DNA of 64,000 bases, from the IMG/VR virus record IMGVR_UViG_3300046791_000587, positions 7,108 to 71,107 of that record; one strand, 5' to 3'. The notes beneath the pieces were generated by a model. It saw only the letters and a list, made by a program, of their open reading frames with translations. It did not search any database and had not been told where the DNA came from. Positions 8,450 to 17,377 of the stretch are shown here, piece by piece; the first letter of the stretch is position 1; each line of letters starts with the position of its first letter. The translations under genes and the position numbers were made by a program. The stretch comes from a virus.

Positions 8450-9799
8450 ATGCGTAGCCACGAGTTTCTGGACCCCGATCCCAACGAGGAGCCGGACGAG
8501 CACGAACCCGAGCCGCACTACGAGGACGAGGAGCCAGTCGACCCGGATCCCGGGATCGAAGCGGACGGGGCCGATGACGACAACCTCGTCCATGACGAGG
8601 ACGCTCCGGAAGATCAGGAGGACGAGTCGGTCGTTCCTACGGCAGGGGCGCATCCCGAGGGCGGACGCGAGATCAGGTGGGTGCCCCTGGGCGATCTCCA
8701 GCTTGATCGCCGGTTCTGGACGAACCCTCGTCTGTTCACGGGGCTGGATGACGCCGACATCCAGGCGCTGGCCGATGACATCTTGGCCAAGACTGTGACC
8801 GACGAAAAGGACGTGTTCGCCGGTATCAGCGAGCCGTTGCTGGTGGTCCAGATCAAAGATGGGGATGACATCGAGCAACTCGTGCTCGACGGGCAGCGTC
8901 GCTACCTAGCGACCCAGGTGGCATATCCCGGTAAGGAGGCGGATGGCGTTCTCGTTCCTGTCGTCGACCGAGAGCCCGAGCCAGTCGAGTGGTCACAGGA
9001 GTTGGCCCAGAAGTACCTCCGCGAGGCTTTGACCGCCGTTACCCTGCGCCAAGGACTCTCGGCCTTCGAGCTCAGCGAGAGTGCCTCCCGGCTCCGCGCA
9101 GGTAACGACGAGAAGACCGGCAACGTGATGACGATCGCCAAGATCGCCACGATCATCGGTCGCTCGGAGTCGTGGGTCTCCAAAATCGTGGGCGCCCGCG
9201 CGCTCGCGAGCGCCGGGCTGCTGGAGCGCTGGCGCAAGGGAGCAATCAGCGAAGAGCAGTTCCGGGATCTGGCCACCGGCACCAAGGGCGCCGAGCAGGA
9301 CAAGGAGGCCGCGAAGGTCGCCGATGCGAGGGCCTCGGGTGACAAGGGCGGCGCCCGTCAGAGCGCCAAGGAAAAGAAGGAACTGGCGCGCCTGGCTGCG
9401 CAGGCCCAGCGACAGAAGAAGAAGGACGAAGAGGTCGCTGCAAAGCAGCGAGCCCGAGACGAGAAGGCAGCCAAGAAGGCAGCCAAGTCCGCCGGCAAGA
9501 AGGGTCCCGCGGTGAAGGGGCCGCAGGCCGAGCTCCCCATCGCCGCCGCCCCCAAGGCGCCCGAGGAGAGCAAGCCGGCCTCGAAGCCCAAGGCGATGGA
9601 TCGGGTCATCGTTGATGACATCCTCGAGATGGTGCAGAAGAAGCCCCCTACGCACGATCTGGTGCGCGGGGTCATCCTGGGCATCCAGGTGGCCGCGGGT
9701 CGGATGGACATGGAGCAACTCCCCAAGCAGTGGCACCAGTACATCCACCACGCGACCGGGACCACGCCTCCGAAGCCCAAGAAGGGCAAGAAGAAGTAG
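8450..9799 (+). CDS. ParB/Srx-like protein with HTH, acidic N-terminus and Lys/Ala-rich C-terminus
   Basis: EPLLV...VLDGQRRYLA ParB-N motif; LSAFE then IAKIATIIGRSESWVSKI HTH; SD AGGAG. Confidence 0.8.
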   Translation: MRSHEFLDPDPNEEPDEHEPEPHYEDEEPVDPDPGIEADGADDDNLVHDEDAPEDQEDESVVPTAGAHPEGGREIRWVPLGDLQLDRRFWTNPRLFTGLDDADIQALADDILAKTVTDEKDVFAGISEPLLVVQIKDGDDIEQLVLDGQRRYLATQVAYPGKEADGVLVPVVDREPEPVEWSQELAQKYLREALTAVTLRQGLSAFELSESASRLRAGNDEKTGNVMTIAKIATIIGRSESWVSKIVGARALASAGLLERWRKGAISEEQFRDLATGTKGAEQDKEAAKVADARASGDKGGARQSAKEKKELARLAAQAQRQKKKDEEVAAKQRARDEKAAKKAAKSAGKKGPAVKGPQAELPIAAAPKAPEESKPASKPKAMDRVIVDDILEMVQKKPPTHDLVRGVILGIQVAAGRMDMEQLPKQWHQYIHHATGTTPPKPKKGKKK

Positions 9800-9803
9800 C
9801 TTC

Positions 9804-9821
9804 GCGCGGAATCATCCGCGC
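9804..9821 (+). terminator. GC hairpin after parB-like gene (no U tract)
   Basis: GCGCGGA-ATCA-TCCGCGC. Confidence 0.35.
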
Positions 9822-9908
9822 AAGCGCGACCGGGCACCCTTGGATGATGTGCGCTCGGTCGCGCGTTCTTTTCCGGGCAACGACGACTTGAACAAGAAGG
9901 AGAACACC

Positions 9909-10070
9909 ATGAAGAAGCTCAAGAAGACACGTAGGTTCACACTGGAACGAGAGACCATCCGAACAGTCGGTGCCGATCGGCTGACCCATATTGCCGGCGG
10001 TTCGGCCTGCGACACGGGCTCCTATCCAACCGGCGGCGCCACGAAGGACACCAAGACCGACGCGATCTAG
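9909..10070 (+). CDS. RiPP-precursor-like peptide with double-glycine leader
   Basis: MKKLKK..FTLERETIRTV...LTHIAGG then Ser/Thr/Cys-containing core; strong SD AAGGAG. Confidence 0.7.
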   Translation: MKKLKKTRRFTLERETIRTVGADRLTHIAGGSACDTGSYPTGGATKDTKTDAI

Positions 10071-10136
10071 GCCGCATCGATTCGCGGCGGTCATCCTGCC
10101 TTGAGATCCGGATGGTCCCGTGTGAGGATTCGCCTC

Positions 10137-10460
10137 ATGGGAGCTATCTTGGATCTCTGGAAGAGCGAGCGCGGCCTTGTCGCGGTCGCTCTCATCGCCG
10201 CTGCAACAACGCTCACAGCTTTGGGCACCATCGGTGTCGAGCAGTGGCTCGACTACACGAAGTGGATCTTCGTGACCTACGCCGCCGCCAAGACCGTGAC
10301 TGGCTCGGTGGCGATGGCGACCTCGCAGCCGAAGAGCGACCCGGGGATCTGGCAGCAAGTCGACGCCCTGATCGCCCGCGCTCTGGCCAACTCGCGCGCG
10401 CCCGCGCCGACACCGCCTGCGTCTCCGGTGTCCGTTGTTCCACCTCCGAAGGCAGGGTGA
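10137..10460 (+). CDS. small membrane protein, holin-like candidate A
   Basis: Two hydrophobic segments; paralogous to the next ORF. Confidence 0.55.
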   Translation: MGAILDLWKSERGLVAVALIAAATTLTALGTIGVEQWLDYTKWIFVTYAAAKTVTGSVAMATSQPKSDPGIWQQVDALIARALANSRAPAPTPPASPVSVVPPPKAG

Positions 10461-10463
10461 ATC

Positions 10464-10925
10464 GTGGCCCACATGTTCTTTGGCCTAACCACGGCCGGCG
10501 TGCTTGCGCTCTGCGCGCTGGGCAACCTGCCGCCCGACCAGTTCGTGGATCTGGCGAAGTGGGTGACCATTCTCTACGCAGCCTCCACCACCATGGTGGC
10601 CATCGTGCGCCACATCTGGCCACGACCCGGTAACCCGGCGGAGGTGCTGCCGACCTTCGATTCAAGAGCAGAGGCGCCACCACCGGACGGCGTAGAACTG
10701 GGCCCGTTCGGTTCCCTGGGCGGGGACGTGTTCTCGGAAGCGCTGGGCAACGGACTCCCGCCCAATTACACGAGCATGGTCCGCGACGAGAATGCACCCC
10801 CAGTGACAACAGACGGTGCCGATGGGTCGCCGCTGACGGTCCCGACGGATGGCGCGCCTTTGCTCGGACCGTCGACTGTCGTCGTACTAGGCGATCGGAT
10901 CACCGACCAGCCGACCGAAAGCTAG
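10464..10925 (+). CDS. small membrane protein, holin-like candidate B
   Basis: LGNLPPDQFVDLAKWVTILY aligns with LGTIGVEQWLDYTKWIFVTY of the previous ORF. Confidence 0.55.
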   Translation: MAHMFFGLTTAGVLALCALGNLPPDQFVDLAKWVTILYAASTTMVAIVRHIWPRPGNPAEVLPTFDSRAEAPPPDGVELGPFGSLGGDVFSEALGNGLPPNYTSMVRDENAPPVTTDGADGSPLTVPTDGAPLLGPSTVVVLGDRITDQPTES

Positions 10926-14122: not shown

Positions 14123-14710
14123 TTACCGCCTGACAAGTCGTCGGATGATGTCCTGGAAATTCGCGTTGTAGAGCGCGTTCGGGCTCCGGCGCTGTCGCAC
14201 GCGGTGGATGATCTCGTCGGCCGTCATCTTGGTAGCGCGCGCGAGCGCCAGACTTGCGATCAGCGCCGATCTGTTGAGACCGGCCGCGCAGGTGACCAGC
14301 ACGCGCCGTCCCGCCACAAGCGCGTTGCCGACCTCCATGGCGGCCAGGACTGCGCGCGTCAACTCCTGATGGTCGAGCGCTCCGTCCGGGATGGGGCAGC
14401 GCAGCACTCGACCATGGAAGGCGAGCTCGCTCGGCTGGAGTTCCTGGGCGCTCAGGACCAGGAGATCGAAGTCAGGCAGATCGCGGTCGAACGGCGGCTT
14501 GCCGCCTACCCACAGCCTCGTGGCCACGTTGGACGCATCGAGTCGCTGTTCCGAGTGCGCCGCCATCCTCTGCCTCCGACGCTCGGCTGATAGCCAGCCC
14601 CCCCGTTGCGCGGCCGGCGCCATCTCGTGGGCCCGGCAGAACACGCTACCGGGTTGCCTTGCTGCCCCACAGGGGGACCGATCGGCCCCTGGGGCGACAC
14701 ACCCGTTCAT
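14123..14710 (-). CDS. dual-specificity protein phosphatase (PTP superfamily)
   Basis: VLVTCAAGLNRS CX5R loop; LWVGG; PIPDG general-acid loop. Confidence 0.85.
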   Translation of the reverse strand: MNGCVAPGADRSPCGAARQPGSVFCRAHEMAPAAQRGGWLSAERRRQRMAAHSEQRLDASNVATRLWVGGKPPFDRDLPDFDLLVLSAQELQPSELAFHGRVLRCPIPDGALDHQELTRAVLAAMEVGNALVAGRRVLVTCAAGLNRSALIASLALARATKMTADEIIHRVRQRRSPNALYNANFQDIIRRLVRR

Positions 14711-16624: not shown

Positions 16625-17377
16625 ATGCGCCGCGCCACCCGCATGGTCCCGAATCCACCCTGGGCCACCAGCATCATCGCTAACACGTACGAAGGCCTCC
16701 AGGGAATGGGGGTGCCGGCGCGCTGGCTTCCGAAGCTAAACGACCTCGCTCCCGTCGGAGAACATGGCGTCGAGGCCAGCATCAAGGAGTACGGATGCGG
16801 AGCATACGGATGCGTCTACCCCACCCTCGATGACAAGGTGGTACTGAAGCTGACGGCCGACGACACCGAGGCCGAGTTCGCGGCCGAGTTGGCGCCGTCG
16901 CTCGAGCGTCCTATCTGCGTGCGCTACTACACCGTCATTCGACCCGATGGAGCCCTCGACGAGAAGGGCGCCCAGATCTACCTGCTCTGGCGCGAGAGCG
17001 CGGATCATGTGGGCAATATCGGCGAGGTGCTCGACGCCCAGACCGGCGACGCCACAGCCGGCGACCGCGCGCTTGAACTCATCGGTGCTCAGCATGAGGC
17101 GGCCCAGGCTGCCTATGCGGCACTCCATGGGGGTCGCTCGCCCGATACCACTCATCAACTGATAGTGACGTGGCTCGAGGCATGCGAGGCGATGGCTCGT
17201 CAAACGGCGGTCCCCGAGCTACGTGAGTTAGGCGATGGACTTGTCGAGGTCTACAGCGCCCAGCGCGTCCTCTTCGGTGACATCCATGTCGGCAACCTTG
17301 GTCTTGTCCATCGGTCCGACGGGGATCACTGGGTGATCACGGACCCCGGCCATGTAGCGGTGGTCGTCAACCTGTAG
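16625..17377 (+). CDS. protein-kinase-like (ePK/APH fold) protein
   Basis: YGCGAYGCVY Gly loop, VLKLT Lys, GDIHVGN catalytic loop, ITDPG. Confidence 0.8.
   Translation: MRRATRMVPNPPWATSIIANTYEGLQGMGVPARWLPKLNDLAPVGEHGVEASIKEYGCGAYGCVYPTLDDKVVLKLTADDTEAEFAAELAPSLERPICVRYYTVIRPDGALDEKGAQIYLLWRESADHVGNIGEVLDAQTGDATAGDRALELIGAQHEAAQAAYAALHGGRSPDTTHQLIVTWLEACEAMARQTAVPELRELGDGLVEVYSAQRVLFGDIHVGNLGLVHRSDGDHWVITDPGHVAVVVNL

Follow-up and report, generated by a model that had tools for sequence, protein, structure and literature searches.

A single-gene insertion in a viral genome encodes a double-glycine leader peptide assigned to a kinase-linked peptide family of Kofleriaceae

We demonstrated that a 53-codon open reading frame carried by a complete viral genome is a real gene, a chance ORF being excluded, and that it constitutes an orphan insertion, i.e., a single-gene copy of a Kofleriaceae peptide family. 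As judged from sequence comparison, the viral peptide is a member of this family, which is apparently undescribed before and whose members in bacteria are encoded next to a receptor kinase. The window considered throughout is the whole stretch of DNA analysed (64,000 nucleotides), which spans bases 7108 to 71107 of a 79,908-bp IMG/VR record with direct terminal repeats and a completeness rating of 100%; for the majority of the proteins that this record encodes, neither PHROG nor Pfam gave a match. Among related viruses, the nearest (L001) is an 82.6-kb record with terminal repeats. A second relative (G082:C411; 72.8 kb, GC 69%) is complete, assembles as a circle with an end overlap of ~98 bp, and is collinear with the virus over most genes (loci L073-L076 and L055), with identities of 30-78%; it was binned in a Kofleriaceae MAG, where it forms a free circular contig and no integrated prophage. 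These three genomes belong to one group, with a size span of 73-83 kb and almost no PHROG matches.

Compared to L001, the viral genome carries an insertion (Table 1) with a GC content of 59% vs. 65.7% for the whole genome. In L001, the stop codon that ends the upstream gene and both stem-loops are conserved, followed directly by the sequence preceding the first membrane-protein gene, and family members are absent from both complete related viruses (L001 and G082:C411). The viral peptide gene is present as a single copy between unrelated genes, and we infer that it is a host-derived accessory gene (i.e., a ‘moron’). The pair of stem-loops located before the insertion looks like a terminator, the second stem-loop being followed in the window by a T-rich run, with a terminator scan match at 9849-9866. 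The motif of the first hairpin occurs only once in the window, and nothing therefore points to a parS-like set. The ‘parB’ label that the initial annotation had given to the upstream gene remains unconfirmed, as its 449-aa product displayed no ParB-type or other supporting match in Pfam, PHROG or PDB sequences, the sole Pfam match being a weak HTH_23 (E 0.22). The same is true for the ‘holin-like pair’ label of the downstream genes, which encode two paralogous 2-TM proteins with no family match; as these genes are kept in the relatives without the peptide, they are not peptide-specific. Elsewhere in the window, a tyrosine recombinase (PF00589; 15754-16785, − strand) was confirmed, no Pfam match was obtained for a 250-aa ORF (16625-17377, + strand), and a dual-specificity phosphatase domain (PF00782, E 2e-9) was identified at 14123-14710 (− strand). 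A virus-encoded phosphatase is notable beside a kinase-linked peptide, and no link between the two was found.

Table 1. Features of the viral peptide locus (positions in the window)
Feature	Position	Strand	Basis or remark
Upstream 449-aa gene	8450..9799	+	54% identity to L001, 37-38% to G082:C411; marks the syntenic position
Two stem-loops 3′ of the upstream gene	9804..9864	+	Fold z -3.0; in L001 7436-7497, z -4.7
Insertion of ~207 nt relative to L001	9870..10076	+	Alignments; holds only the ribosome site and the peptide gene
Shine-Dalgarno AAGGAG	9897..9902	+	6-nt spacer to ATG; read from the sequence
Precursor peptide gene, 53 codons, stop included	9909..10070	+	ORF list, GC3, family HMM
Leader, residues 1-31, ends GG	9909..10001	+	Alignment, hydrophobic -15/-12/-7/-4
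Predicted 22-residue core	10002..10067	+	Begins S-A, then CDTGSYPT, then variable tail
Two paralogous 2-TM protein genes	10137-10460 and 10464-10925	+	Downstream of the peptide; also in the peptide-less relatives

The description initially given of this locus, i.e., a 53-aa peptide with a strong Shine-Dalgarno sequence and a double-glycine leader, was borne out by the AAGGAG motif, by the GC3 and by a profile score of 49 bits. Indeed, the GC contents of the three codon positions in the peptide frame are 0.50, 0.56 and 0.74, as compared with third-position values of 0.52 and 0.57 in the shifted frames, and the adjoining genes display GC3 values of 0.77-0.88. In the six-frame translation of the 79.9-kb genome, one short ORF with the GG-leader pattern was found vs. 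0.13 expected from Markov shuffles, a rarity that is suggestive but not strong evidence for a gene. Homology is the stronger evidence, since a leave-one-out family HMM (25 members, with the viral peptide excluded) scored the viral peptide at 49 bits (E 3.9e-14), when the next best of the 2026 six-frame segments from the three virus sequences reached only 8 bits. The family alignment fixed the start at the ATG in position 9909. An in-frame extension of 152 codons starting at 9612 was rejected, as the position GC upstream of 9909 is non-coding-like, and the public 76-aa gene call (P0001) is probably too long, its start falling inside the hairpin region. A search of Rfam with positions 9600-10300 gave only a sub-threshold OxyS match.

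Using phmmer against 1.84 billion cluster representatives, two homologues were identified, namely P0003 (60 aa, E 2.5e-4) and P0005 (57 aa, E 9e-4), the latter being recorded in NCBI as a hypothetical protein of a Kofleriaceae MAG, on a 14.6-kb contig. A profile built on these two and the viral peptide recovered ~30 peptides with lengths of 55-65 aa, and the loci of bacteria and metagenomes added 43 six-frame HMM matches, nearly all of them usable members. The family pattern comprises a Lys-rich start, a variable stretch of ~10 residues, and a conserved helix-like stretch running to A-G-G; in the core, an invariant Cys located 0-4 residues past the cut site precedes [D/E/P]-T-x-S and an aromatic residue, after which the tail is variable, and this core pattern is also seen in the viral peptide. 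Its members were found exclusively in genomes of Kofleriaceae and in metagenome contigs of soil type: profile matches occurred in 21 of the 138 genomes in the GTDB family of the Kofleriaceae MAG G001, with full-length arrays in 8 of them, and none of 400 other Myxococcota genomes sampled gave a match at E 1e-8 (16 candidates scored per genome). In addition, a pattern scan of IMG/VR with a narrower alignment revealed no other virus with a family member and matched four metagenome contigs; a word-indexed search with the single viral peptide returned only the self-match, and the profile gave only chance matches against PDB sequences. Longer, fused forms of the peptide were not found, which is weak evidence. 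As the closest member is only ~60% identical to the viral peptide, no donor was identified; blastn of the insertion against the bacterial loci likewise traced no donor and yielded a single 24-nt match over conserved codons.

The leader of the viral peptide displays I(−15), V(−12), L(−7) and I(−4) ahead of G30-G31, and the latter agrees with the definition of a GG leader (Gly at −2; Gly, Ala or Ser at −1). It was reported that PCAT peptidase domains bind their substrates via hydrophobic residues at −4, −7, −12 and −15 plus the GG, and that leader residues beyond −18 are usually dispensable for PCAT recognition (PMC7018657). The viral leader thus keeps the spacing recognised by C39 peptidase domains. 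This register is common to the family: all 32 parsed members carry V/I at −15, L/V at −12 and A/V/I at −4, and 31 of them have L at −7. Concerning a possible loss of the GG site among homologues, which had been raised in the initial annotation, no such loss was observed, since position −1 is Gly in 32/32 members within the same register throughout; position −2 is Gly in 26 members and Ser in 6, and these S-G variants, being in the same register, support that bond as the processing site. Note that some members read L-S-G-C; a lipoprotein signal was nevertheless rejected, given that these leaders carry charges and lack a hydrophobic core. The comparison with curated GG and lanthipeptide leader profiles that had been suggested gave no significant match, i.e., TIGR04149 only (E 0.89, with 9.5 bits vs. 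a cut-off of 25) and no Pfam family. Regarding the core, the CDTGSYPT octapeptide of the virus is identical in four metagenome members (P0013, P0019, P0020 and P0022). The viral core has a net charge of −1, a GRAVY of −0.69, one Cys and seven Ser/Thr (32%). The family cores (32 parsed members) have on average 18 residues, a net charge of −0.5, a GRAVY of −0.72 and 38% Ser/Thr, with a second Cys at the very C-terminus in 13 of the 32.

In bacteria, the copies are organised in tandem arrays of 3-8 genes, with about five peptide types recurring across genomes. An orthologous kinase gene of ~1080 aa was found immediately upstream of the array and on the same strand in all seven fetched loci; these kinases show 55-80% identity, the one in L049 being at 32%. 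Each comprises a Pkinase domain (~60-330), one predicted TM helix (~356-378) and a C-terminal part of ~700 residues with WD40 repeats, which, if the N-terminus is cytoplasmic, corresponds to the topology of a receptor kinase. The best NCBIfam matches were PknB and PknD, and not the lanthipeptide synthetases LanL or LanKC. Orthologues of the kinase ectodomain (at least 57% identity) are confined to genomes with arrays. Moreover, among 14 distant kinase paralogues (27-47% ectodomain identity), an ORF with a GG/AG leader was located downstream in 8 cases with the strict pattern and in 11 with the HMM; these ORFs start from −20 to +329 nt relative to the kinase stop, with the same leader style and a different core, and the two genes overlap by 4 nt in two of the pairs. 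In the 11.3-Mb genome G001, the profile gave only 18 matches at E below 0.1; since a random 3.7-kb stretch would then hold one with a probability that we estimate at ~0.006, the kinase-peptide pairing is not due to chance. From gene order by itself, these peptides would be putative ligands of the kinase encoded beside them.

Neither a tailoring enzyme nor a PCAT was found in the regions flanking the main-family arrays. Instead, these regions hold genes for a wax-ester synthase, an FHA/sigma-54 activator, an ABC-3 permease, Lon and another kinase, as well as a HAD hydrolase, a GMC oxidoreductase and cytochromes. The FHA-domain sigma-54 activator was observed a few kb from the arrays in two loci (L044:2562-4499, + strand; L048:6411-8294, − strand; 88% identical), and could plausibly represent a phospho-threonine-reading output of the kinase. 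In three loci (L044:7323-9209, L047:7465-9352 and L045:11106-12886), the arrays are followed by genes for two proteins, a conserved membrane protein of 144 aa in which a His-rich motif occurs and a secreted protein of ~480 aa made of a coiled coil plus a beta-rich C-terminal part, neither of which has a Pfam, NCBIfam or PDB match; the AlphaFold model of the 479-aa form, built on a 3-sequence alignment, was unusable (mean pLDDT 30), and this protein may be an outer-membrane barrel. Three loci of G001 (L008, L010 and L012) encode small peptides with the same leader style and Cys-rich cores unrelated to the family, the peptide of L012 adjoining a WD40-like region. As the same leader is found on different cargo in G001, it looks like a general export tag of the lineage.

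The absence of a lanthipeptide synthetase and of a C39 exporter, initially noticed for the window, was confirmed and extended to the whole virus genome, in which no C39, ABC_tran, Radical_SAM or LANC_like domain was found; note that the LANC_like search of the virus had no working positive control, the LanC domain having matched later in bacterial genomes. In addition, no homologue of the bacterial receptor kinase or of its ectodomain was detected in the virus. The host is probably a member of Kofleriaceae, because the peptide family has a restricted range and because a related virus was binned in a Kofleriaceae MAG; the common peptide family would thereby provide a host prediction for viruses of 73-83 kb. 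Six array-bearing Kofleriaceae genomes showed 4-8 C39 matches each, none of them adjoining the peptides, and the proposed need for host machinery is therefore supported by a probable host family that has both homologous peptides and C39 domains. Since no PCAT lies beside the peptides in the bacterial loci examined, the exporter is assumed.

Altogether, we tentatively favour, at a little under an even chance, the reading in which the viral gene is a moron copy of a Kofleriaceae peptide that is exported by a PCAT and mimics a host kinase signal. In an infected or lysogenic cell, the leader helix of the 53-aa precursor would dock in a host PCAT, which would cut after Gly31 and export a hydrophilic peptide of 22 residues; this peptide could then engage the WD40 ectodomain of the host receptor kinase, either as an agonist or as an antagonist, so that a counterfeit signal of viral origin would enter the peptide-kinase pathway of the host. 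Three features make signal mimicry the best fit, namely the link with a kinase, a core that is hydrophilic, and the lack of genes for immunity or tailoring. The ‘secreted signal’ proposed in the initial annotation is thus strengthened by the receptor-type Ser/Thr kinase found upstream of the bacterial homologues, but a phage-phage lysis-lysogeny version of the arbitrium kind is not, as no homologue of the receptor kinase of the family was found in the virus and the genes beside the peptide are kept in relatives without it. The broader proposition, in which Hanks-type kinases would sense PCAT-exported GG peptides via their WD40 repeats and the virus would have captured the ligand in order to counterfeit or jam the signal, appears possible and rather unlikely as a whole.

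A different role would be that of a precursor for a modified peptide (lanthipeptide-like or another Cys/Ser/Thr type), whose core would be phosphorylated on Ser/Thr by the kinase in the cytoplasm and finished in trans by a host enzyme, the virus supplying one extra substrate. We consider it unlikely for the viral peptide, even if several observations point in this direction. Indeed, the core is rich in Ser/Thr and has an invariant Cys, with the second C-terminal Cys in part of the members, and the nearest Atlas clusters are class I lanthipeptide leaders, at 0.88, i.e., under the Atlas line of 0.9. Furthermore, 3-7 LanC-like matches were found in each of the five array genomes searched, and three paralogous kinase-peptide modules (L070:1759-7398, L071:2-5607 and L072:2-2292, from G077, G057 and G056, respectively) continue with a LanC-like gene (PF05147). 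The order in these modules is a receptor kinase with TM helix and WD40 repeats, a peptide with a GG/AG leader, an esterase-family protein and a stand-alone LanC-like protein; in two of the three, the protein between the peptide and the LanC-like gene is a secreted member of the erythromycin-esterase family with a CarboxypepD_reg domain. Their peptides have Ser/Thr near the cut site, a C-terminal Cys, and cores unlike the main family. The modules may represent an undescribed kinase-linked thioether peptide pathway, and modification of peptides in the wider group is possible. However, the contigs of 18-32 kb on which the main-family arrays lie were devoid of LanC, LanB, radical-SAM or other tailoring genes, and neither a LanC nor a radical-SAM domain was found in the virus; the kinase is a generic Hanks kinase closest to PknB/PknD, its 700-aa region beyond the TM helix would be odd for a tailoring enzyme, and no lyase was seen. 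Consequently, of the ‘RiPP-like double-glycine precursor’ of the initial annotation, the double-glycine precursor stands, but the RiPP or lanthipeptide label is unsupported for this family, for lack of a tailoring enzyme on the array contigs.

It is quite improbable that the gene is a functionless remnant, taken from a host array through illegitimate recombination and awaiting loss. Such an origin would agree with its presence in a single virus lineage and with its truncated leader, which is without the ~10-residue N-terminal stretch seen after the initial M-K-K in bacterial members (the leader of the peptide in L049 is likewise short). It would also agree with the promoter scan, in which no sigma-70-like promoter was recognised between the terminator-like hairpins and the peptide gene. 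However, the ORF is intact, its strong ribosome site has ideal spacing, and every recognition position is retained; the gene remains open despite being ~40% diverged from all known members. The variant P0006 (from another metagenome, on a 4.3-kb contig) differs solely by in-frame, conservative changes, i.e., a V to I substitution in the leader and one extra in-frame Asp.

A role as a weapon of the class II bacteriocin or microcin-like type, favouring lysogens over uninfected kin, is even less probable. The GG-type leader and the presumed reliance on a host PCAT would suit such a weapon, the tandem multi-copy arrays of the homologues recall bacteriocin loci, and class II microcins were reported as widespread in Gram-negative bacteria (PMC12219008). 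The antimicrobial role initially suggested is nonetheless disfavoured by the core itself, which is hydrophilic and slightly acidic in the virus as in the family means, unlike typical pore-forming bacteriocins. In addition, the insertion holds no immunity-like gene, and the bacterial arrays are conserved sets of about five orthologous types, unlike hypervariable toxins, that adjoin a receptor kinase and neither a PCAT nor an immunity gene. Just as doubtful is an intracellular decoy, in which the leader would occupy the host PCAT (or the precursor the kinase) and block the export or signalling of host peptides: the leader helix is fully conserved, the N-terminal stretch and core tail differ from the host members, and the virus is without a homologue of the receptor kinase, but the first core octapeptide, shared unchanged with the four metagenome members, would be needless for a pure leader decoy.

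Phages are known to carry or eavesdrop on parts of quorum-sensing systems, as in arbitrium, VqmA-phage and the agr genes of phiCDHM1, and all such cases known to us involve either Firmicutes peptide systems or small-molecule autoinducers. If signal mimicry is true, a virus of a myxobacterial lineage would, in the present case, carry just the ligand side of a system from its host. The host-side pairing of GG peptide genes with WD40 receptor kinases, which has many diverged paralogues, may be the larger and more novel result; to our knowledge, few ligands of bacterial eukaryote-like kinases have been established, and the kinase-peptide gene pairing offers testable candidates. Full-text searches of the open-access literature revealed no work that pairs WD40 receptor kinases with GG-leader peptides in myxobacteria, and none that describes GG-type precursors in phage genomes.

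When compared to known systems, the peptide resembles, in part, several classes of leader-bearing peptides. The GG-leader RiPP precursors of Bacteroidota (TIGR04149, and PF28317 for the class I lanthipeptide leader) share the Lys-rich N-terminus, the L-x-L-x-[KR]-E-T-[IVL]-[RK] motif and the GG, but the HMM match is not significant and neither radical-SAM nor LanB/LanC genes lie beside the family. Class II microcins and bacteriocins likewise have a GG leader, and they depend on a PCAT, as the present peptide presumably would; in contrast, the core described here is neither cationic nor hydrophobic, and no immunity, PCAT or MFP gene adjoins it. As in the arbitrium system of SPbeta-like Bacillus phages (AimP/AimR/AimX), the peptide would be phage-encoded and secreted. 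However, AimP is cut by extracellular proteases, re-imported and read by the AimR of the phage itself (PMC7790227), whereas the leader of the present precursor is of the GG type, and the receptor kinase of the family has no homologue in the virus.

Closer parallels are found in two other systems. The temperate Clostridioides difficile phage phiCDHM1 carries agrD, agrB and agrC, which is not the full pathway, and, according to the standing hypothesis, the host community would sense the signal made by the phage (PMC7790227). Both viruses thus carry homologues of a host peptide-signal system with an incomplete pathway; the genes of phiCDHM1 further include those for the processing enzyme and the sensor kinase, whereas the virus studied here brings the precursor alone, and AgrD is unrelated to the PCAT class of GG-leader peptides. 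The ComC/CSP and BlpC peptides, handled by the ComAB and BlpAB PCATs, are short GG-leader precursors with hydrophobic residues at −15, −12, −7 and −4 (PMC7018657), and in both settings the peptide gene sits beside a gene for a membrane receptor kinase, with export, presumably here as well, by a PCAT encoded elsewhere. The streptococcal receptor is a histidine kinase, whereas the putative one described here is a Hanks-type Ser/Thr kinase with a WD40 ectodomain, in Gram-negative Myxococcota, with arrays of about five peptide types. On present comparison, the ComC/BlpC-type GG pheromones would be the nearest mechanistic analogue of this peptide, and phiCDHM1 the nearest viral one.
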